In this document: in pieces, positions 1,941-64,000 of the stretch
How the letters are laid out: each line of letters begins with the position of its first letter
Numbering within the stretch: position 1 is the stretch's first letter
Sequence record: PQ724394.1
Length of the DNA stretch: 64,000 nt
From: a phage
Reading direction: 5' to 3' (one strand)
The notes under the pieces: generated by a model
What the model saw: only the letters and a program-made list of their open reading frames with translations
The model's database searches: none
What the model was told of the DNA's origin: nothing
Translations under genes and position numbers: made by a program

Positions 1941-3035
1941 TTGATAATGAAAGTAAAAGAAATTGACATTGACGTAGCCTCCTTATTTAAAGGAGGTTCA
2001 AAAACCTCCGCGGGCCAATCTAAAGCTAAACCAGCCCAAACCACGGTAACTGCCCAGTATCCAGCCGAAAGGGCCTCGGGCAATGATACCTCTACAGATA
2101 TGGTGTTAAACGATTTATATAAAAATGGATTACTTTTTACGGCATATAATTTTAGCTCTCGCGTATCACCTGATTTACGTAACGACCGCTCGAGCCAAAT
2201 GACTAAAAAGTTTTCAAAAGCCGCTAGTAAACTTACTGGTAATACCGGTGGGTTCAGCGCGGTTAAAAACTTGTTTAGTAACAACTCTAAAGGAGTTAAA
2301 TTTGATAGCCAGGCTTTAGCCAATATTTTGCTCCCACGTTCTAAATCTGATGTTGATTCGGTTACCCATAAATTTAATGATGTAGGCGAATCATTAATTA
2401 CTAAAGGTGGTGGTACTGCTACAGGTATTTTGAGTAACGTTGCCAGTACTGCTGTATTTGGCGCATTGGAATCTGTAACTAACGGTGTAATGGCCGATTC
2501 TGGTGAGCAAATATACACCACCGCTCGTAGTATGTATGCAGGGCCTGATAACCGTACTAAGGTATTCACTTGGGAAATGACCCCTAGAAACGCCCAAGAC
2601 CTTATTCAGATTATTAAAATATACGAAATCTTTAATTACTATTCTTATGGCGAAACAGGCAACTCTGCCTTTGCCGGTGAATTAAAAGAGAAGATTGATA
2701 CATGGTACCGTTCCACATTTAAAAAAGAAGCTATTGATAACTTTGACGGCAAGCTATTAGGAGAAGGTATCACAAGTTTCCTTTCTAATGTTATTGTGGT
2801 AAGTAACCCAACTATTTGGTATATTCGAAACTTTGGTAATACAAGTTCATATGACGGACGTGAAGATATTTTCGGACCGTGCCAAATCCAAAGTATACGA
2901 TTTGATAAAACTCCCGACGGACATTTTAATGGTTTGGCTATTGCTCCTAACTTACCATCCACGTTTAGTTTAGAAGTTACTTTCCGTGAAATCATTACTT
3001 TGAACCGTGGCTCACTTTATACGGAAGGATTCTAA
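1941..3035 (+). CDS. 48: Baseplate tail tube cap (gp48-like)
   Basis: 364 aa, same length as T4 gp48; synteny 29-48-54. Confidence 0.8.
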   Translation: MIMKVKEIDIDVASLFKGGSKTSAGQSKAKPAQTTVTAQYPAERASGNDTSTDMVLNDLYKNGLLFTAYNFSSRVSPDLRNDRSSQMTKKFSKAASKLTGNTGGFSAVKNLFSNNSKGVKFDSQALANILLPRSKSDVDSVTHKFNDVGESLITKGGGTATGILSNVASTAVFGALESVTNGVMADSGEQIYTTARSMYAGPDNRTKVFTWEMTPRNAQDLIQIIKIYEIFNYYSYGETGNSAFAGELKEKIDTWYRSTFKKEAIDNFDGKLLGEGITSFLSNVIVVSNPTIWYIRNFGNTSSYDGREDIFGPCQIQSIRFDKTPDGHFNGLAIAPNLPSTFSLEVTFREIITLNRGSLYTEGF

Positions 3036-3988
3036 TGTATACTTTACAAGAATTTCAAAACCAGGCAATTAATATTGACCTACAAAGGAATAACCTGTTT
3101 AGTGTAGTATTTGCTACAGTTCCTTCTTCTAAATCCCAAGCGCTCCTCGACCAGTTCGGTGGAGCTTTATTTAACAATATCCCGTTGAATACCGATTTGT
3201 TTGGAATTACCCAAGGAGATTTAACCCAAGGTGTTACGACATTAGTGACAGCGGGCACTCAGAAGTTGATTCGTAAGTCCGGCATAAGTAAATATCTGAT
3301 TGGAGCTATGTCATCCAGGGTTGTGCAGAGCTTACTAGGTGAGTTTGAAGTCGGGACTTATCTTATGGATTTTTTCAATATGGCTTATCCTACGGCAGGT
3401 CTTTTAGTCCATGCAGTTAAAATTCCGGATAATACTTTGAACTATGAAATGGATTTGAACCACAACTCGCCTAATATCAAAATTACCGGAAGAGAATATT
3501 CCCCATTGGTATTAAGCTTCCGTATGGATTCTGAAGCTGCTAACTACCGTGCTTTTAATGATTGGGTCAATAGTGTCCAAGACCCTATTACACAATTAAG
3601 AGCATTGCCTGAAGATGTTGAAGCTGACATCCAAGTCAACCTTCATTCTCGTAATGGATTGCCACATACGGTGGTAATGCTTAATGGATGTGTTCCTGTT
3701 AGTGTTTCATCGCCGGAATTATCCTATGATGGTGATAACCAAATTGCTTCGTTTGATGTTACATTTGCTTATAGAAGTGTGCAGACAGGTGCAGTTGGTA
3801 AACAAGCTGCTTATGAATGGCTGGAAGATAAAGTCCTTAAAGGCGTAGCAGGTATAAGTGAGAGTAACTCATTAAGTGCTTCTGTAGCTAAATTAAGCCG
3901 ACTTTCAGGAGCTTCTAGTGGATTGACCGGATTGGTTAATACATTTGGTGGGCGTGCTATTAATAATGGAATATCCAGGTTGTTATAA
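3035..3988 (+). CDS. 54: Baseplate tail tube initiator (gp54-like)
   Basis: 317 aa; start overlaps gene 48 stop; synteny. Confidence 0.8.
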   Translation: MYTLQEFQNQAINIDLQRNNLFSVVFATVPSSKSQALLDQFGGALFNNIPLNTDLFGITQGDLTQGVTTLVTAGTQKLIRKSGISKYLIGAMSSRVVQSLLGEFEVGTYLMDFFNMAYPTAGLLVHAVKIPDNTLNYEMDLNHNSPNIKITGREYSPLVLSFRMDSEAANYRAFNDWVNSVQDPITQLRALPEDVEADIQVNLHSRNGLPHTVVMLNGCVPVSVSSPELSYDGDNQIASFDVTFAYRSVQTGAVGKQAAYEWLEDKVLKGVAGISESNSLSASVAKLSRLSGASSGLTGLVNTFGGRAINNGISRLL

Positions 3989-3994
3989 CAAAAA

Positions 3995-4014
3995 AGGAGA
4001 GCTTACGCTCTCCT
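3995..4014. terminator. Bidirectional hairpin terminator between convergent gene 54 and ORF 4023-4313
   Basis: Perfect inverted repeat AGGAGAGC-ttac-GCTCTCCT, T-run on one side. Confidence 0.6.
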
Positions 4015-4022
4015 TTAGGGGT

Positions 4023-4313
4023 TTATTTACGGAACGAGATAAAACCTGCGGCGGTCATTAATGGCTGCTTTTTAACAAAGACCGTGATAGAAATAGGAGC
4101 TTCAGATTCAAGCTGGCCGGTTACTACACCATTAAAGATATTTTCAGTTTGTTCGGGTTGTGAAAAATTTTCAACCGGGCGTAAGTCAAACTGTTTGTCT
4201 TTGCCGAAAACTCGACGTAATTCATTACCGACTGCACTGTCGAACTCTTCAGAAGCAGGGATAACGTTTTCAACTACCAGCTCTTGACCATTAAAACGGA
4301 ATGCAGATTTCAT
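4023..4313 (-). CDS. Hypothetical protein (96 aa) downstream of alt
   Basis: ORF preceded by GAGGAG RBS and a GTTTAC / TACTAT early-promoter-like cassette at about 4330-4370. Confidence 0.5.
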   Translation of the reverse strand: MKSAFRFNGQELVVENVIPASEEFDSAVGNELRRVFGKDKQFDLRPVENFSQPEQTENIFNGVVTGQLESEAPISITVFVKKQPLMTAAGFISFRK

Positions 4314-4370: not shown

Positions 4371-6494
4371 CTACATTTTGAATTTATTTGATAAAGAAGA
4401 GATGTCCAAAGATGCAGCAAGGATTTCCATAGCCTCATTACTTTCTGAAACAGATTCTGAAACTAGGAATTCTTTAAACCCATTCATCAATTTAACTTCA
4501 CCGGTTTCCATCAGATGGTCGCCATCGTAAACGGATTCGCTGAGTTCTGAAGGAGATGTCACTGTAGCTTCCATAAGGTATTTGTGAGATACTCTATCAT
4601 TCATAGCAAAAGCCGCTACTTTATCAACCTTCAACAATAACCCGCGCGGAAGGATAATTTCCGCTTCTTCGGCATATTCTGTAAGGTCGCCAGGAGCGAT
4701 AACTTTAACTGCTTCAGCACCTCGAATAACCATACCAATTTCAGCAATCCTGTCTGCAGGGCCTTCAGGTGCAATTGGATTACCAAACTCGTCTTCTTCC
4801 CATTCTACCTCTTCGTCATCGACTTCACCTACGTCAGATGAACTACCACTGGCTAATTTAAACAACTCATCAGCGGAGGATAAAGAACCTTCATCACCGA
4901 CAAAAACTGCTTGGTTGTCGAGGGCCATATAATTTTTACCAAATTCGCCAAAGATATTAGGCTTTAATGAAGCGGACACAAAGTTCTTAAAGTAAAAGGT
5001 TTTGTTATCAATATTATGGCGCAGAATTTTGTATGGTAAATCCTGACCACGATACAAAATAGTACCCTTAGGAAGTTTAATACCCTTGGTAAATGCCGAG
5101 TCTAAATCCTTAATCAATTTAATAGCTGTTGTATTGTTTTCGGATTCAGGTTTACCTAAAAGGAATAAGTTCATAGGAGCATATTCAGCCGCACAATATT
5201 CAATAATGGCATTACTTTCGTCTTTGGTCAAGCCCTTAGGTTTAATGAGCTCGCCTGAATAAGCATATGCATCGCTAATAGAATCGTTAATCAGTTTATA
5301 AACGGCTTCCATAGCGAAAGCAATTCGAGATGCTTTCTCTGAAGGAGACCCCTGAAAACGGGCACTCAGGTTATTAACAATTCTCTTAATAATATCCAGA
5401 CTATTGGTAGTATTGATTTGAGAAAGACCGCTTAAAAGTCTATCGACTTCCGTATTAAAAAATGCCATATTATTAGAGTAAATTTCAAACCCTTGTTTAT
5501 CTCTATTAGCATAATTTAGTTTAAATTTACTATCAGTCATTAAAGCGTGCGTGAGAGCAATGGTGTATCTAAAGTTGGCAAGGTCCTCACTCTTAGATTT
5601 AAACTGAGAGGCCTGTCGCATTTTAGTAATAGAACCTTTTTTAAAGTTCTGGCTAATCTGCTCAATACCTTCGTTCTCAGGGCCTTCGGCCGAGTGAACA
5701 GGGACAGAAGCTTCAAACTCGTTATAAATCTGCAATTCTTTAGGTGATAAAGTTTCGGGTTCGGCAGTAGAATACTGCGCCGCTGCAGCCATACGACGGG
5801 AAATCTTAGTACGAGAAATAACAGCCTTATCGGTACGTTTCTCTTCAACCTGTGCAATAGATGCCGCTACGGCTTCTACTTTACTTACGGCCTGGCCGGT
5901 TTTCTTAGAAACATAAACTTCACCGACTTTAGACTCAACCTTGGTATAAAGGTCTGCATCAATTTCAGGCATACCCTTGATATCTTCGATATTAGAACCA
6001 CGACGTACTAAAAGAACGTAGGTATGTTTACCACTAAACTGGAACATATCATCGACAACTTTAAACTTACCACCGGTACGTGCCATCACCAAACGAGCTA
6101 ATACACGCTGAACGGTAGGACCCTTACCTTTCATTTTCTTGGTAGGGAAACGGAACAAAACTGCATCCATTTTAAGTTTGTTTACTTGTTCGTATACGGT
6201 ATCGAAAATAGTATTCAGTGTACCAAGTGGGTCAGAACCAAGCCCACCTTTGAGTTCAGCCGGAGCACCCTTGCTAGACAAACTCATTAAAATAATATGA
6301 ACGTATTTGTCGCCAGGCTTAACCATTTTAATAGCGTCTCCTTGAGACGCATAAGATACCATACGAGCAACCAGGTTATCATTACCTGGTGCTTGGATAG
6401 AGAAAATCTGTGGGATACCTGAGCCTGGCTTAAGATTTGTTACTGGATAGTTTTTAGCTGAATCACTATCAAAAACTTCGTTTAAATTTTCCAT
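4371..6494 (-). CDS. alt: Alt-type ADP-ribosyltransferase, paralog A (707 aa)
   Basis: N-terminal region conserved with the neighbouring paralog (LVARMVSYAS.GDAIK...LKGGLG); C-terminal R (YRGQ), S-x-S (FVSASL) and E-x-E (EEAEIILPRGL) motifs; position next to DNA ligase as T4 alt. Confidence 0.85.
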   Translation of the reverse strand: MENLNEVFDSDSAKNYPVTNLKPGSGIPQIFSIQAPGNDNLVARMVSYASQGDAIKMVKPGDKYVHIILMSLSSKGAPAELKGGLGSDPLGTLNTIFDTVYEQVNKLKMDAVLFRFPTKKMKGKGPTVQRVLARLVMARTGGKFKVVDDMFQFSGKHTYVLLVRRGSNIEDIKGMPEIDADLYTKVESKVGEVYVSKKTGQAVSKVEAVAASIAQVEEKRTDKAVISRTKISRRMAAAAQYSTAEPETLSPKELQIYNEFEASVPVHSAEGPENEGIEQISQNFKKGSITKMRQASQFKSKSEDLANFRYTIALTHALMTDSKFKLNYANRDKQGFEIYSNNMAFFNTEVDRLLSGLSQINTTNSLDIIKRIVNNLSARFQGSPSEKASRIAFAMEAVYKLINDSISDAYAYSGELIKPKGLTKDESNAIIEYCAAEYAPMNLFLLGKPESENNTTAIKLIKDLDSAFTKGIKLPKGTILYRGQDLPYKILRHNIDNKTFYFKNFVSASLKPNIFGEFGKNYMALDNQAVFVGDEGSLSSADELFKLASGSSSDVGEVDDEEVEWEEDEFGNPIAPEGPADRIAEIGMVIRGAEAVKVIAPGDLTEYAEEAEIILPRGLLLKVDKVAAFAMNDRVSHKYLMEATVTSPSELSESVYDGDHLMETGEVKLMNGFKEFLVSESVSESNEAMEILAASLDISSLSNKFKM

Positions 6495-6497
6495 TAT

Positions 6498-8582
6498 TTA
6501 CCCTTGGATGAATTTTTCTGGTATGTCATAGAGGTCTATGCATGAAGCCAAAAGTGGCAGTACGTCAAACCGTGTAGATTTAACAAATGAATCAAAAGAT
6601 ACAGGGCTTTCGGAAGTATCGAAGTCATCTTGGTATACAACCAATTCACCAGTTTCCATTAGTACGTCACCATCATACACCACAGATTCTTGAAGCTCAT
6701 CTGTGGTCATAACTTCGGCTTGAACGAGTTTTGTATTACTAGATGTTGTTCCGTCATTATTAGAGGCATCGGTTATTTTATTAACTTTGACCATCAATCC
6801 ACGCGGTAGAATAACTTCAGCTTCTGTTGCTATTCCGAGACTTCCTGGATATACAACATTAACTTTATGGGCTCCATCAATTGCCCATCCTATTTGAACT
6901 TTAACGTAATCAGGGTTTTCTTTATACGCTCTTATTTCATTAGGATTAATGGTTATTCCTTCTTCATTTTTATCGACTGTCAATTCATTGCGAACTTCCG
7001 GTTCTAAAAGACCGACACCCGCGTGTGTAACACCAAAACGACCAAAAATGATAGGAGTCAGTGAAGTAGATACAAAATTTCTAAAATAAAATACCTTATT
7101 TTTAACTAGTGCTTCGTATATAGGAGCAGTCATACTTTGAGCACGATAAACTGTAATGCCTTCTGGTATACGGTCACCATTTTCAAAAGCTGAATCAAGA
7201 TTATTAACAGCAGATTCAATAGACCTTTCATTCATTACATCATAGTTCTGAGGATTATAACGTCCTAAAAGAAGATTATTGATGTCGGTATAACCTGAGC
7301 CGCAGTATTCTCTGATGCCGCGCTTTTGTGATGGGGTGTATTTAGAACCATCGCGAGCAATAGTAATATCGACCATAATACCACCGCCTACACCAGCAAA
7401 ACTATATACACGTTTTTTAATGAACTTGGTCTTGGCTGCTTTCCACTTGGACTCGGTTAATTCATTCCAGACGTCGTCAGGCTGACCTTTACGAGTTTTG
7501 TTATGTATAGCCAGCCATTCGCCTTTATATTCTTCAAAAACTGTATTAATAACAGAGGCATACTTTTCTAGAGCTTTAACAGATGTCAAAGGTTCGTTTT
7601 TGATGGCTGTAAGAATTCTCTCTTTAATTTTCTCTTGGATTTCACCTATACCGTGAAGAGGAAACATTTTATATTCATAATGCAACTCTTCAGCAGTGCC
7701 TTCAGCTACTATATTAGCAACTTTATTTTTAGCCGCAGGAGAATTGTTATTGGTGACCATTTCCTGTGCCTCAGGGATTAATGGAGCTGTTGCAGGTTTA
7801 TTAAAATCTGCTGCAGTAGCTTCATATTTCTTAAACAGTTCACTTTCATTACGATAAGATTCTAAAGACTGACTTGCTGCAATAGCGCGACGAGAAATCT
7901 TAGTCTTGGTTATAACCATTTTATCAGTGCGACGTTCTTCAACTTTAGCAATACTGCCGGCAATAGCAGTTTCTTTAGTAACCTGCACACCTTCTTTTTT
8001 AGAAATATAAACTTCACCAACATCAGAATCTACCTTAGTATATAATTCGGCATTAATTCCTGGCATACCTTTGATATCTTCAATATCAGCTTGTTTACGA
8101 ACTACTAGGATATAAGTATGTTTACCGGTAAATTGGTACATGGCTGGAACTACTTTAAAACGTCCACCGGTTTTCTGTGCTACCAAACGTTGGATAATCC
8201 GTTGGACGATAGGTCCTTGTCCTTTCATTTTCTTGGTTGGAAAACGGAACATCACAGCATCCATACGAAGCTTTTTAACTTGTTCGAATACTACGTCGAA
8301 AATGGTATTAATAGCATCAATAGGAGTAGGGCCTAAGCCGCCTTTAAGTTCGGCTGGAGAACCTTTAGCTGAAAGGCTCATAAGGATGACGTGGGCGTAT
8401 TTATCACCTAATTTAACCTGTTTAATAGCATCGCCTTCAGAGGCATAAGATACCATACGGGCCACTAATTGGGATTCGGCGTCGCCAATCTTCCAAATCT
8501 GCGGTACTTTAAGTTTTGGGTTTAAGTTTACAGTAGGCAGGGTGCCTTCAGACTCAAACACTTCATTTAATTGTTCGGTCAT
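6498..8582 (-). CDS. alt: Alt-type ADP-ribosyltransferase, paralog B (694 aa)
   Basis: Same architecture as paralog A; YRAQ, FVSTSL, EAEVILPRGL motifs; AAAGAGGA RBS upstream. Confidence 0.85.
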   Translation of the reverse strand: MTEQLNEVFESEGTLPTVNLNPKLKVPQIWKIGDAESQLVARMVSYASEGDAIKQVKLGDKYAHVILMSLSAKGSPAELKGGLGPTPIDAINTIFDVVFEQVKKLRMDAVMFRFPTKKMKGQGPIVQRIIQRLVAQKTGGRFKVVPAMYQFTGKHTYILVVRKQADIEDIKGMPGINAELYTKVDSDVGEVYISKKEGVQVTKETAIAGSIAKVEERRTDKMVITKTKISRRAIAASQSLESYRNESELFKKYEATAADFNKPATAPLIPEAQEMVTNNNSPAAKNKVANIVAEGTAEELHYEYKMFPLHGIGEIQEKIKERILTAIKNEPLTSVKALEKYASVINTVFEEYKGEWLAIHNKTRKGQPDDVWNELTESKWKAAKTKFIKKRVYSFAGVGGGIMVDITIARDGSKYTPSQKRGIREYCGSGYTDINNLLLGRYNPQNYDVMNERSIESAVNNLDSAFENGDRIPEGITVYRAQSMTAPIYEALVKNKVFYFRNFVSTSLTPIIFGRFGVTHAGVGLLEPEVRNELTVDKNEEGITINPNEIRAYKENPDYVKVQIGWAIDGAHKVNVVYPGSLGIATEAEVILPRGLMVKVNKITDASNNDGTTSSNTKLVQAEVMTTDELQESVVYDGDVLMETGELVVYQDDFDTSESPVSFDSFVKSTRFDVLPLLASCIDLYDIPEKFIQG

Positions 8583-55364: not shown

Positions 55365-57182
55365 TTATGACATCCAAGCCTTACGCAGCTGTGGGTCGTT
55401 TCCAAGGAGCATTTCGAACTGGTCTTTCCAATCTTCAGGTAATTGAACTACATCGAATTTAGGGTCTTGAATCATTCGACGGTATTCAGCCTTCTCAAGA
55501 GAACCGAGACCTTTAATATAACGAATAGAATGTTTTGGTAGAGAGTCCTTAGCTTTGGTATAACTAGGTACATCATAGAACCATTCCTGTTCTTTACCAA
55601 CCTGGGCAATGATTACAGGAGTCTTACAGAAACGAATTCGTCCCTGTTCGAACAATTCCGGCCACTGACTAAAGAAAGCTAATAACGAAGGATAAATCGA
55701 ACCGGTACCATCCACATCGGCGTCAGTCATGATAGCGATATTACGATAGTTGGTTTTATCTGCGGGTTCACCAATAACCAGTCCAGTGATTGCACAGATA
55801 TCAAACAATTCTTTGTTCTTCATGATATCGGCAGCAGTCATACCCCAGGTATTCATAACCTTTCCGCGTAACGGATAACCACCTTGGAGGTCTTTATTAC
55901 GAACTTCAATAAAAGGGCCCATTGCGGAATCACCTTCCGTAAGGAATAAAGTCGTATCAGCATCTTTGCCATACATATTGGCTTTAATATGCTTATGGAC
56001 CTTGGCTTTCAAAGCTTTCTTAGCAGCTTTTGTTTCGGCGGCTTTTTCAGCAGCGAGTTTACGTGCTAAAGCTGCTTCGACAATAGGCATAATCAACCCA
56101 TCGACCTTAAGAATAGCCGTTGCAATTTTCTTAGCATCAATTTGGATATGGTTACGAATCTCACCAAACGGAGAGGTTAATCGCTCTTTAGTCTGTGAAT
56201 CAAAACGCATATTGCTCATATCACGAATGAACATTACCATAGTAAGGCATTCTTTAACACGGGCCTTAGTTACTTCGATTCCTTTATATTTCTTTTTAAT
56301 ACCAGGCAGAAGATGCTCACAGATATCATCAAACACACATTCAACGTGGTGACCACCGTTCTTAGTATGGATATTGTTTACATACGTCAGTTGACGGAAC
56401 CCGTCCGGAGAAGGAGTAAATGCCATCGAAACATTATCAGTTTCTTGGATTACAAAGTCTTCACCAAATTGCTTAGCATACTTTTTAAAGTTACCATCTA
56501 CTTTTTTACCATTAAAAGTAAATTGGATATCTGGATAAATTACGGCCAGTGTTTGAAGGCGGTCTAATGTAATATCCAGATAAATTTGGGACAGGCTATT
56601 TTCTTCGAAATGGTTAAAGTCTGGGGTGAATATAACCGAAGTACCCTTACCTTTAGATTTCTTAGTAGACCAACCTTTGTTTTCCATTCCATTGGAACAG
56701 TTAACAGTAATCTCATTCTCACCATCAGAGGTGATGCCTGTGAACAAAACAGAGAAGATATTAGTTAAACTACTACCAACACCGTTCATGCCGCCCGTCT
56801 TACGCTCAGCGTCATCTCCAAAGTTACCACCGGCCTTTGGAATAGTCCATGCAGCTACAGGACCCGGAATTTGTTCACCATTTTGGTCGGTAACCATTGC
56901 TTGAGGAATACCACGGCCATTATCAGAAACTGAAACCTGATTATTCTTAATTTGGACATCAATTTTATTTGCGAATTTAAAATTGGTACGAATAGCTTCA
57001 TCGACAGAGTTATCAATGATTTCGTCAATTAATTTAACCAGTCCAGGAACATAGTTCACCTGGGTAAAATTACCAAACAGGAATCGACCGTGAGCTTCAT
57101 TAGCACTTGAGCCAATATACATCCCACTACGTTTTTTGATATGTTCAATGTCGGACAGTACTTTAATTTCATTCTTAATCAT
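55365..57182 (-). CDS. 39: DNA topoisomerase II large subunit gp39 (GyrB-like), one contiguous 605-aa ORF
   Basis: GHKL ATPase and TOPRIM-like regions (e.g. EGDSA); single uninterrupted ORF. Confidence 0.9.
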   Translation of the reverse strand: MIKNEIKVLSDIEHIKKRSGMYIGSSANEAHGRFLFGNFTQVNYVPGLVKLIDEIIDNSVDEAIRTNFKFANKIDVQIKNNQVSVSDNGRGIPQAMVTDQNGEQIPGPVAAWTIPKAGGNFGDDAERKTGGMNGVGSSLTNIFSVLFTGITSDGENEITVNCSNGMENKGWSTKKSKGKGTSVIFTPDFNHFEENSLSQIYLDITLDRLQTLAVIYPDIQFTFNGKKVDGNFKKYAKQFGEDFVIQETDNVSMAFTPSPDGFRQLTYVNNIHTKNGGHHVECVFDDICEHLLPGIKKKYKGIEVTKARVKECLTMVMFIRDMSNMRFDSQTKERLTSPFGEIRNHIQIDAKKIATAILKVDGLIMPIVEAALARKLAAEKAAETKAAKKALKAKVHKHIKANMYGKDADTTLFLTEGDSAMGPFIEVRNKDLQGGYPLRGKVMNTWGMTAADIMKNKELFDICAITGLVIGEPADKTNYRNIAIMTDADVDGTGSIYPSLLAFFSQWPELFEQGRIRFCKTPVIIAQVGKEQEWFYDVPSYTKAKDSLPKHSIRYIKGLGSLEKAEYRRMIQDPKFDVVQLPEDWKDQFEMLLGNDPQLRKAWMS

Positions 57183-60372: not shown

Positions 60373-61047
60373 TTATCGATTTTTTATACTTAATGGGTCT
60401 GGATTCTCAGGAACATCTTCCAGGTTTAAAGCATATCGTTGGGCATATTTCAGCATCAAGATATCCTTAGCACAGTCATGGATAGAGTCATGAGCAACAA
60501 AACCATTCAATGTTCCGTTAGGCAGAGGGCACATGCTCAATCCGCGCGTCAGTGAATACGCTTCAATAGCTGTACGGATATCACGTTGGTTCCAGAATTT
60601 AACCGGTTCTAATTTACTGGTATCGATTTCGTTCTCAGGAACACCTTCAGAACGATAAGCATCGCGAATAAGGTCCACCAAGATTGGAAAGTCAAAGGAC
60701 ATTCCACGGCACCACATCTGGGATTTCCATTGGTCCACTTCGTTTTTACGACAGTATTCTAGGAAATTACCAAGGCCGATAGAAGTACTCACATCAATTT
60801 CGGACGGAGCCAGGTTTTTACGTGCTTCAGGTCCTTGTTCTTTCCACCACTGCAATGTGCTTTTAGAGAACAGACGTTTATCGCGTTGAGAAGCCAAATC
60901 GAATTTAATACGAAGGCCGCGTTGAGTAAGCTCTTCAAACGATTCTACTACCTCTGGATTAGGGTCGTAAGCAATTACGGCGAGGTCGATAACTGCTGCA
61001 TTTTGGGTAGTGGCAAAGGTTTCAAAGTCAATAATTATATCTTTCAT
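60373..61047 (-). CDS. dexA: Exonuclease A (DEDD 3'-5' exonuclease)
   Basis: 224 aa; N-terminal IIIDFETFA motif; synteny with dda. Confidence 0.85.
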   Translation of the reverse strand: MKDIIIDFETFATTQNAAVIDLAVIAYDPNPEVVESFEELTQRGLRIKFDLASQRDKRLFSKSTLQWWKEQGPEARKNLAPSEIDVSTSIGLGNFLEYCRKNEVDQWKSQMWCRGMSFDFPILVDLIRDAYRSEGVPENEIDTSKLEPVKFWNQRDIRTAIEAYSLTRGLSMCPLPNGTLNGFVAHDSIHDCAKDILMLKYAQRYALNLEDVPENPDPLSIKNR

Positions 61048-61290: not shown

Positions 61291-62622
61291 TCAAACATAA
61301 TAGGCATCAGTACGAGCACGGGTAATACTAACATAAGCCAGCTGTGAAGCTAAATTGGCATCAGCCATGTGCATGCACGGAGTATAGATGAAACTGTTTT
61401 GGACAGTAAGGCCCTGTGATTTATGAACGGTGCTCACCGGAAGAGCTCTAACCTTAGTGAACATTCGCTTGGCTTTCCAGAAATCAGCCCACTTAGGTTT
61501 CTTACCAGTTCCACGCATAGCCTTGTACTCAGTAGCCACCTTAGCCAAGAAATAATGGAACTTCTCAACTGAAGCCTCATCAATAACTTTCAAGTGTTCT
61601 ACGTAGTACTCGTCATCCTCATCAATAGATTCAACCTGGAGGTCCCAGTAATTAATCATCTGGCGAGTGCCTACATCCTTGGCAGACAAGAACAATGAGG
61701 TATGGTTCACATCTAAAATACGAACCATTTGGCCGTTATTAAAAATGGTTTCAGAGAATTTCTTACCATCGTATTCGAGCTCCTTCATAAAAGGCTCTTG
61801 CATCACGAGGATTTCGCCCTTGATATAAGGCACCTCGGTTTCATAAAGCTTTTTACGAATAATGCTATTCAGCTTTTCAACCGATTTATTCGTATAAGCA
61901 AACATCCTGTTCTCAAACAAGGCATCGGCATCTTTTACGATGGAAAAATAATTCATCATAAAATCTTTTAAAGCCGTTTGAGATTTAAAACCATGGACCC
62001 CATGACCTTCGAATATACAATCTCGGAACCATCCACCGTTACGGATTTCAGTAGCAACCTCAATGATAGGAGCATTACTACGCATTACTTCAGTAAGGTG
62101 TAGCTGTTTAATTTTAGGATGAGTAAAGAATGGAGACAACTGAGGACTTCCATCACTTCCTGGTTCTACAGGTTGTAACTGTGCTCGGTCGCCAATCCCC
62201 AGTACAGTGCACCATGGTGGAACCGATGCTTCGATAATCTTAAACAACTTACCGTCAATCATTGAGCCTTCGTCTACCACAAGAACATTACATTTGCTCA
62301 AGTCAGGAGCTTCACGTTGTTCAAAAATATCCTGGTCTTCGTATGTAGTCGGGTTAATCTTTAGGATTCGGTGAATTGTCGATGCTTCTTGGCCTGCGAG
62401 TTTCGACAATACCTTCTTGGCCGCGTGTGTAGGTGCGGTCAAAATAACTCCGAGTTCGCCATTCTTGACTAAGTGGTCAAGGATAAATTTAGTAAGGGTC
62501 GTTTTACCTGTACCCGCAGGTCCATTCAATGTAATCCATTCGCCCTTACGTCGTTTAATAGCTTCAATGATTTCTTTAAAGGCCGTCCGTTGCCCAATAT
62601 TCAAGTCTTCAAATGTAATCAT
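61291..62622 (-). CDS. dda: DNA helicase Dda (SF1B)
   Basis: 443 aa; Walker A NGPAGTGKTTL; N-terminus like T4 Dda. Confidence 0.95.
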   Translation of the reverse strand: MITFEDLNIGQRTAFKEIIEAIKRRKGEWITLNGPAGTGKTTLTKFILDHLVKNGELGVILTAPTHAAKKVLSKLAGQEASTIHRILKINPTTYEDQDIFEQREAPDLSKCNVLVVDEGSMIDGKLFKIIEASVPPWCTVLGIGDRAQLQPVEPGSDGSPQLSPFFTHPKIKQLHLTEVMRSNAPIIEVATEIRNGGWFRDCIFEGHGVHGFKSQTALKDFMMNYFSIVKDADALFENRMFAYTNKSVEKLNSIIRKKLYETEVPYIKGEILVMQEPFMKELEYDGKKFSETIFNNGQMVRILDVNHTSLFLSAKDVGTRQMINYWDLQVESIDEDDEYYVEHLKVIDEASVEKFHYFLAKVATEYKAMRGTGKKPKWADFWKAKRMFTKVRALPVSTVHKSQGLTVQNSFIYTPCMHMADANLASQLAYVSITRARTDAYYV

Positions 62623-62918
62623 GCCAATTTTACTCGCTTAACATATAAAGTGTCTAAAATCAATTTTAATTCTCGAGCCCGTTCTTTGGTAGGAAAAACT
62701 GTTTTAGTTTCCCACTTATCAAACCACCATTTTCTTGGCGTGCACACTGTTTCAAGGCGTCCAAGCCGAAGATATCTTTTTGTTGAGATTTCATAAGCCT
62801 CTAAAGCAGTGTCGGCTCCAATCTTTGTCGAATACAAAGTCACTTCACCGGCATCTTCTAATGGAATTTCATACCCGTCTTTGTCCTTGTGAACTAATAC
62901 GTATGCATAGTACATCAC
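62619..62918 (-). CDS. Hypothetical protein (99 aa)
   Basis: ORF, start overlaps upstream stop. Confidence 0.5.
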   Translation of the reverse strand: MMYYAYVLVHKDKDGYEIPLEDAGEVTLYSTKIGADTALEAYEISTKRYLRLGRLETVCTPRKWWFDKWETKTVFPTKERARELKLILDTLYVKRVKLA

Positions 62919-62919
62919 G

Positions 62920-63669
62920 TTAACCTCTAATCAGTGAAAAAATTGAAGCATTCAGCGGAAGACCTTTTTTCAACTTCAATTTGTCAATAAAAGAAAGGTG
63001 TTCTAAACGCTCCAGACCTTGAATAATTTTATCATACATATCGTAACGCGTTTCTGCTTCAGACAATTTAAACTTGACACGCCAATCAGGTCCACCAATT
63101 AAAGATTTAAGACCTTTTTCCATAGTACCGATTGAAGCGTTAGAACCATGGATACGGGCCTTAACTGCGATAACAGAAGGGGTCTTATCGGTAGCTCCCG
63201 ATTTAATAAGGTCTTTAAGACGTTTTTCACGTTTTTTAAGACCTCTTTGGGTATCTTTAATATTTTTAACGATTTTACGAATTTTATAATAGTTATCAGG
63301 AGTAACTTTAAAACTATTAGGCATTTTAGAACTACCTGAAATACGAACTGCTAAACGAGTCTGGGCACGTTTCAGTTCATCAAGGGACAAATCGGCACGT
63401 AAGCTGTTATACTTAACTTTAACTGGGATTACATTACCCTCAATATAGCCGATATCGTTGTTAAAACGTTCAAATGAAATCTTATCATTAACTGAATTTT
63501 CATCAAAGTACTCGCCCGAATAAGCGCACACTTTTTGTTCGAGAAGTCTACGAACATACTTACTAGACAGATTGAAGTCCTTACCGCGTTTATAAGCAGA
63601 AGCTTTGGTGTGTTTGCGGCGGTTGTAAACCTTTAACTCAAATTCATCGTTAGTTTTAATAGTAGGCAT
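62920..63669 (-). CDS. Hypothetical basic protein (249 aa); Srd-like by position and length
   Basis: Position upstream of dda as T4 srd and similar length; no motif support. Confidence 0.45.
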   Translation of the reverse strand: MPTIKTNDEFELKVYNRRKHTKASAYKRGKDFNLSSKYVRRLLEQKVCAYSGEYFDENSVNDKISFERFNNDIGYIEGNVIPVKVKYNSLRADLSLDELKRAQTRLAVRISGSSKMPNSFKVTPDNYYKIRKIVKNIKDTQRGLKKREKRLKDLIKSGATDKTPSVIAVKARIHGSNASIGTMEKGLKSLIGGPDWRVKFKLSEAETRYDMYDKIIQGLERLEHLSFIDKLKLKKGLPLNASIFSLIRG

Positions 63670-63807
63670 GATATTTTTCTCATCTTACGGACGATTAGTT
63701 GATAGGTCTATAGTATCATGTTGCTTAATAAAGTAAACACTTTTTTGCTTTAAATTTTCAACGGTATAATGAATCAAGGACTTTGCCTTTCAATTAAACC
63801 GGGTGGT

Positions 63808-64000
63808 TCAGTAAGAAAGAACGGAAAGATTCCAAATAGTGTAATTATTCCATTTAGGATTTCTCTCAATAGAGTCTACGCGTAGCGTAGTTCCCGCAGG
63901 GAACATCATCTCATCTTCATCATTAATTAATTGTAAGTTTGCTACACGGGTAGATTCAGGAAATGCTCCTGGGAACTCTTCAGGGGGAGCAGCACACAAC
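63808..64000 (-). CDS. 3' end of a Mod-like ADP-ribosyltransferase gene (5' part beyond window)
   Basis: C-terminus contains EDEMMFPAGTTLRV, matching the ExE catalytic block of the two Alt paralogs (EAEIILPRGLLLKV / EAEVILPRGLMVKV). Confidence 0.5.
   Translation of the reverse strand, partial: LCAAPPEEFPGAFPESTRVANLQLINDEDEMMFPAGTTLRVDSIERNPKWNNYTIWNLSVLSY

Follow-up and report, generated by a model that had tools for sequence, protein, structure and literature searches.

Genes at the edge of the window

The window, a stretch of 64,000 nucleotides of phage DNA (PQ724394.1), ends at its 3' edge within an open reading frame on the minus strand (Table 1). In the ORF listing, the frame is open from the edge, with the first full codon at 63999-63997, and no stop codon was found until the TGA at 63808-63810. 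Its translation is (L)CAAPPEEFPGAFPESTRVANLQLINDEDEMMFPAGTTLRVDSIERNPKWNNYTIWNLSVLSY. The base at position 64000 (C) is the final base of the preceding codon, which fits the ATG of Met141 in ModA of Escherichia phage JS98. A TTG "start" at 63997-63999 was rejected as an artefact of the edge, because the equivalent position in JS98 ModA is an internal leucine, Leu142. The original prediction placed a truncated open reading frame with a Glu-x-Glu (ExE) block at the 3' edge of the window, and this was borne out by the 63-codon frame and its TGA. It also held that the frame ends with the block; the block is present at 63877-63918, but 22 further codons (DSIERNPKWNNYTIWNLSVLSY) precede the stop.

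Table 1. Features of the window, with the evidence behind each assignment.
Feature	Position	Strand	Evidence
alt paralogue 1 (707 aa)	4371..6494	minus	PF03496, E 1e-17, 64.6 bits
alt paralogue 2 (694 aa)	6498..8582	minus	PF03496, E 1.5e-35, 122.8 bits
topoisomerase gp39	55365-57182	minus	ORF listing
dexA	60373-61047	minus	ORF listing
dda	61291-62622	minus	ORF listing
dda.1	62619-62918	minus	PHROG 1079
srd	62920-63669	minus	PHROG 1400, E 6e-92
modA 3' end	63808..64000	minus	last 63 codons 63999-63811 and TGA stop 63808-63810
EDEMMFPAGTTLRV, catalytic Glu-x-Glu strand of the R-S-E ADP-ribosyltransferase motif	63877..63918	minus	conserved columns, T4 ModA mutant
two Glu codons of E-D-E	63916-63918 and 63910-63912	minus	aligned with T4 ModA E163-Q-E165
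Arg codon in ES-T-R-VAN	63946..63948	minus	aligned with T4 ModA R153

Over its last 1.1 kb, the window shares 98.5% identity with JS98, and 74 phage records match; the features under the JS98 match are annotated as srd, modA and dda.1. JS98 is classified in the genus Dhakavirus of the Straboviridae, subfamily Tevenvirinae. When the last 20 kb were searched by megablast, no record exceeded 95.7% identity at high coverage, and the window therefore represents a distinct JS98-like isolate. From these sequence matches, we assign the window to a JS98-like T4-type coliphage (Dhakavirus). The genes dda, dda.1, srd and modA follow each other in this order on one strand, and the same order was observed in T4, JS98, MN04, VR7, Shf125875 and E33. 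The modB side of the conserved order lies beyond the window; in JS98, modA (204 aa) is followed by modB (189 aa).

Similarity of the fragment to ModA

The fragment corresponds to residues 142-204 of the annotated ModA of JS98 (YP_001595145.1, "RNA polymerase ADP-ribosylase", 204 aa), and 63 of 63 amino acids are identical. The same gene is found in JS10, Bp7, MN04 and other Dhakavirus genomes, and the neighbours srd, dda.1 and dda are common to JS98 and the window. At the nucleotide level, where the identity is about 97%, the comparison with JS98 and MN04 showed 6 differences in 193 nt, 0 non-synonymous and 6 synonymous; all 6 are synonymous because the proteins are identical. Synonymous-only differences are typical of purifying selection, and together with the full amino acid identity to JS98 ModA they show that the frame is coding.

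The N-terminal ~141 codons, about 70% of the protein with two of the three catalytic motifs, lie beyond the window edge, and thus only the Glu-x-Glu is visible in the window. A gene cut in this way could in principle be a disrupted or truncated remnant, of which the 3' part alone is intact. We consider this very improbable, since the 63 visible codons carry no non-synonymous difference from JS98 against the 6 synonymous ones, and modA is intact, with 202-204 aa, in JS98, MN04, E33, VR7, Shf125875 and the IMG/VR contig L009.

In blastp searches, the fragment matched T4 ModA with 41% identity over 46 aa (E 2.6e-12), and no match was found to T4 ModB or JS98 ModB. The full-length JS98 ModA is 39% identical to T4 ModA over 166 aa (E 7.8e-26). 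The fragment also matched PHROG 832, "RNA polymerase ADP-ribosylase", with an E-value of 5.8e-7. A tblastn search with the fragment found one site in each of 615 phage records, 35 of which were at least 99% identical. Among the matches listed, the annotated sites were mostly named ModA, RNA polymerase ADP-ribosylase or NAD-protein ADP-ribosyltransferase, a few were named "hypothetical protein", and one (CUA3) was labelled modB. The identity fell in steps from 100% in Dhakavirus to 79% in E33, 67% in Gaprivervirus, 58% in Mosigvirus and 40% in Tequatrovirus. The contig L009 shares a window-specific 37-mer and belongs to a more distant, E33-like Dhakavirus, which encodes a ModA of 204 aa (with YRG) and a ModB of 189 aa. 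No exact match was found in IMG/VR to the final 62 or the final 32 bases of the window, nor in metagenome contigs to the final 32.

To compare the catalytic motifs, six ModA and six ModB sequences from T4, JS98, MN04, E33, VR7 and Shf125875, which cover the genera Tequatrovirus, Dhakavirus, Gaprivervirus and Mosigvirus, were aligned with the window fragment (13 sequences). The length of ModA was 200-204 aa in the six relatives from the four genera. The arginine of [YWF]-R-G (T4 R72/G73, JS98 R73) was present in 12 of 12 full-length ModA and ModB proteins, and it falls at R73-75 in all five ModA sequences other than that of T4. The first serine of S-x-S/T (T4 S96, JS98 S100) was likewise found in 12/12. 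In ModA, the Ser-x-Ser reads S100-F-S102 in JS98, MN04 and E33, S101-F-S103 in VR7 and Shf125875, and S96-A-S98 in T4. Both glutamates of the ExE (T4 E163/E165, JS98 E169/E171) were conserved in 13 of 13 sequences, the window fragment among them. The refuting outcome named with the original prediction, a lack of the Arg or the Ser-x-Ser or a far greater length, was seen in none of these relatives.

T4 ModA (NP_049635.1, 200 aa) resembles the window gene in several respects: it occupies the slot between srd and modB, belongs to the size class of the relatives, carries the R-S-ExE motif, and has P-A-G after the ExE, as in the fragment. It differs in the identity, which is the 39% and 41% given above for the full-length protein and the fragment, and in its S-A-S compared with the S-F-S of Dhakavirus. 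Furthermore, modA overlaps modB in T4, whereas the two genes are separated by a 54-bp spacer in JS98.

The Mod-like identity that was predicted for the truncated frame is thus upheld by the identity to JS98 ModA, the similarity to T4 ModA, the PHROG 832 match and the synteny. The fragment is very probably the C-terminal third of a ModA of about 204 aa, which by analogy would be an arginine-specific mono-ADP-ribosyltransferase of a JS98-like phage. The N-terminal 141 residues would carry the Arg and the Ser-x-Ser, as they do in the relatives.

Distinction between ModA and ModB

ModA and ModB are paralogues, and the assignment was examined against the possibility that the gene, although named and placed as modA, has a ModB-like function. 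The targets of ModB are ribosomal protein S1 (rS1), EF-Tu and trigger factor, and it has RNAylation activity, the attachment of NAD-capped RNA. T4 ModB (NP_049636.1, 207 aa) belongs to the same Mod family, with the R-S-ExE motif and a similar length, and in the N-terminal half it is no less similar to the Dhakavirus ModA than T4 ModA is. Over its N-terminal 141 aa, JS98 ModA is 40% identical to T4 ModB (E 2.8e-20) and 39% identical to T4 ModA (E 2.2e-14), and the bit score of the full-length JS98 ModA is 90.1 to T4 ModB versus 86.3 to T4 ModA. In addition, the GenBank record of MN04 names both mod genes "modB". However, the C-terminal fragment in the window matches T4 ModA only, with neither ModB detected, and T4 ModB differs in having no blastp similarity to it. 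The P-A-G after the ExE and the YTIWNLSVLSY tail group the fragment with the ModA proteins of four genera, and the window gene lies in the modA slot beside srd, while in all relatives the modB slot is taken by a separate gene of 189 aa. A ModB-like function is therefore quite unlikely, and we retain the assignment to ModA. Dhakavirus phages carry four ADP-ribosyltransferases (two diverged Alt paralogues, ModA and ModB), and given the N-terminal half of their "ModA", the target range of this protein or its capacity for NAD-RNA (RNAylation) may differ from that of T4 ModA, with the host targets divided among the four enzymes in another way than in T4; we regard this as an outside chance.

The Glu-x-Glu block

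The second Glu of the EDE in the window aligns with E165 of T4 ModA, and the E165A mutant of T4 ModA is catalytically dead (PMC11404850). To examine how specific the block is, the pattern E.E[ILMVFWY]{3}P.G was scanned over the six-frame translation of the whole 64-kb window, with 200 mononucleotide shuffles as the control. Exactly three sites were found in the window: one at 63892-63918 in the fragment, and those at 6798-6824 (EAEVILPRG) and 4641-4667 (EAEIILPRG), which fall inside the two Alt paralogues. The pattern did not occur once in the 200 shuffles. Since there are only three sites, all in ADP-ribosyltransferase genes, and none in the shuffles, the motif is specific to the ADP-ribosyltransferase genes of the window. 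The original prediction that the ExE-hydrophobic-P-x-G block is common to the fragment and both Alt paralogues therefore holds, and not by chance.

Apart from the shortness of the fragment and its sub-threshold Pfam score (see below), nothing speaks for the ExE-PxG block being a chance motif in non-coding DNA or in an unrelated frame. This explanation can be dismissed, because the motif is confined to the three ADP-ribosyltransferase genes of the window and never arose in the shuffles, and because the fragment shows full identity to an annotated protein and significant similarity to T4 ModA. The block is thus read as part of ModA.

Another conserved residue was observed in the alignment. The Arg at the position of T4 ModA R153, ten residues before the ExE, is invariant in 13 of the 13 ModA and ModB sequences compared. 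The classical R-S-E triad does not include this residue, which might be part of the substrate-recognition loop.

Profile and structure searches

In Pfam, the fragment scored 12.0 bits (E 0.13) against PF03496, the ADPrib_exo_Tox family of Alt, VIP2 and C3 exoenzyme type, below the gathering threshold of 23.4 bits, and the match covered profile positions 151-184 of 196, which is the ExE stretch. The full-length JS98 ModA, with 12.4 bits, was also below this threshold, and T4 ModA and T4 ModB gave no match to PF03496. As the T4 proteins themselves fail in Pfam, the failure of the fragment says nothing against its identity as an ADP-ribosyltransferase. In NCBIfam, only the XopAI effector model was matched, at its ExE end and below the threshold, with an E-value of 2.8e-4 versus a cut-off of 300 bits. 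When JS98 ModA was searched against the sequences of the PDB, no solved relative was found; the best match, TrmB (E 0.0067), was rejected as spurious. A published AlphaFold model of T4 ModB displays the R-S-EXE site (PMC10468400).

Relation to the Alt paralogues

Both Alt paralogues of the window carry the complete set of motifs. Paralogue 1 contains LYRGQ (R482), FVSAS and EAEIILPRG (E610/E612), and paralogue 2 contains VYRAQ, FVSTS and EAEVILPRG. The upstream-encoded paralogue 2 is the T4-like copy, with 57% identity to T4 Alt in the ADP-ribosyltransferase domain. The JS98 annotation has two alt genes in the same place. Alt proteins are packaged in the virion and then injected.

T4 Alt and the Alt proteins of the window have in common with Mod the R / S-T-S / E-x-E logic and the local block E-x-E-hydrophobic(3)-P-x-G-x-x-hydrophobic-[KR]-V. 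They differ in size, being about 700 aa, and they pass PF03496 strongly, whereas Mod does not. When the Mod alignment was compared with an alignment of the Alt ADP-ribosyltransferase domains by hhalign, only 23 columns around the ExE were aligned, with an E-value of 0.12 and a reported probability value of 0.50, and Mod as a detectable member of the Alt family was rejected on this result. Because no significant similarity was found outside the ExE block, the shared block marks a common clade (R-S-E) and not a common family. At the level of sequence, Mod is a family separate from Alt with the catalytic logic of Alt. Published work assigns the Mod family to the R-S-E clade, beside Alt/VIP2 (PMC9503650).

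The two PF03496 Alt paralogues and the modA fragment bear out the original count of at least three ADP-ribosyltransferase genes in this genome. Since modB follows modA in the relatives, a fourth is likely, and the genome probably encodes two Alt proteins, ModA and ModB.

Some further features of the alt genes were observed. The tandem pair in the window compares with a single alt in T4, and the ADP-ribosyltransferase domains of the pair are about 35-40% identical to each other. In paralogue 1, an acidic insert of about 30 alignment columns was found between the S-x-S and the ExE. Counted from the RefSeq CDS, the E-x-E of T4 Alt (NC_000866.4 123454-125502) lies at residues 574-576, while the published inactive mutant of T4 Alt is named E577A (PMC11404850), so that the two numberings are one residue apart.

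Proposed function of ModA

Both Mod proteins have the R-S-EXE motif known from arginine-specific ADP-ribosyltransferases (PMC10468400). [quoted passage not shown] By analogy with T4, ModA would be made early in infection. NAD+ would be bound in a cleft formed by R73, the Ser-x-Ser strand S100-F-S102 and the Glu-x-Glu strand E169-D-E171 (JS98 numbering), and the ADP-ribose would be moved onto Arg265 of both alpha subunits of the host RNA polymerase. This modification would block the contacts of the alpha-CTD with UP elements and activators, and the loss of these contacts may help to shift transcription off host and early promoters. As the identity to T4 ModA is about 39%, Arg265 of the RNA polymerase alpha subunit as the target is an extrapolation.

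Annotation of modA

The modA of the window is an ordinary orthologue, which is already known and annotated in near-identical phages. The result confirms a JS98-like T4-type phage with a standard early host-takeover gene block, whose genome has ADP-ribosyltransferases of both the Mod and the Alt type, and it is of mild use for annotation. In the record of MN04 (MT129654), the genes at 2908-3522 and 3577-4146 are both labelled "NAD--protein ADP-ribosyltransferase modB", and the same gene is elsewhere named ModA or "hypothetical protein". The probable reason for this inconsistent automated naming is that the family is covered by neither a Pfam nor an NCBIfam model. Since Mod proteins are invisible to these databases and are named inconsistently, reasoning from motifs and synteny is a valid way of recognising ModA and ModB.

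Observations on srd and the modA-srd spacer

The N-terminal ~100-130 residues of the srd product matched the HNH endonuclease and endonuclease VII families of PHROG, with E-values of about 5e-15, which hints at an HNH-like ancestry of this "anti-sigma factor / sigma decoy". In the spacer between modA and srd, a putative site resembling a T4 early promoter was observed at 63710-63738 on the minus strand, with GTTTAC, 17 nt and TGa-TACTAT (extended -10). A simple consensus scan missed this site and gave a weaker one at 63793-63766 instead. The srd start codon (ATG at 63669) follows about 40 nt downstream of the putative promoter at 63710-63738, which is preceded by an A-rich tract and whose -10 part is kept in L009.
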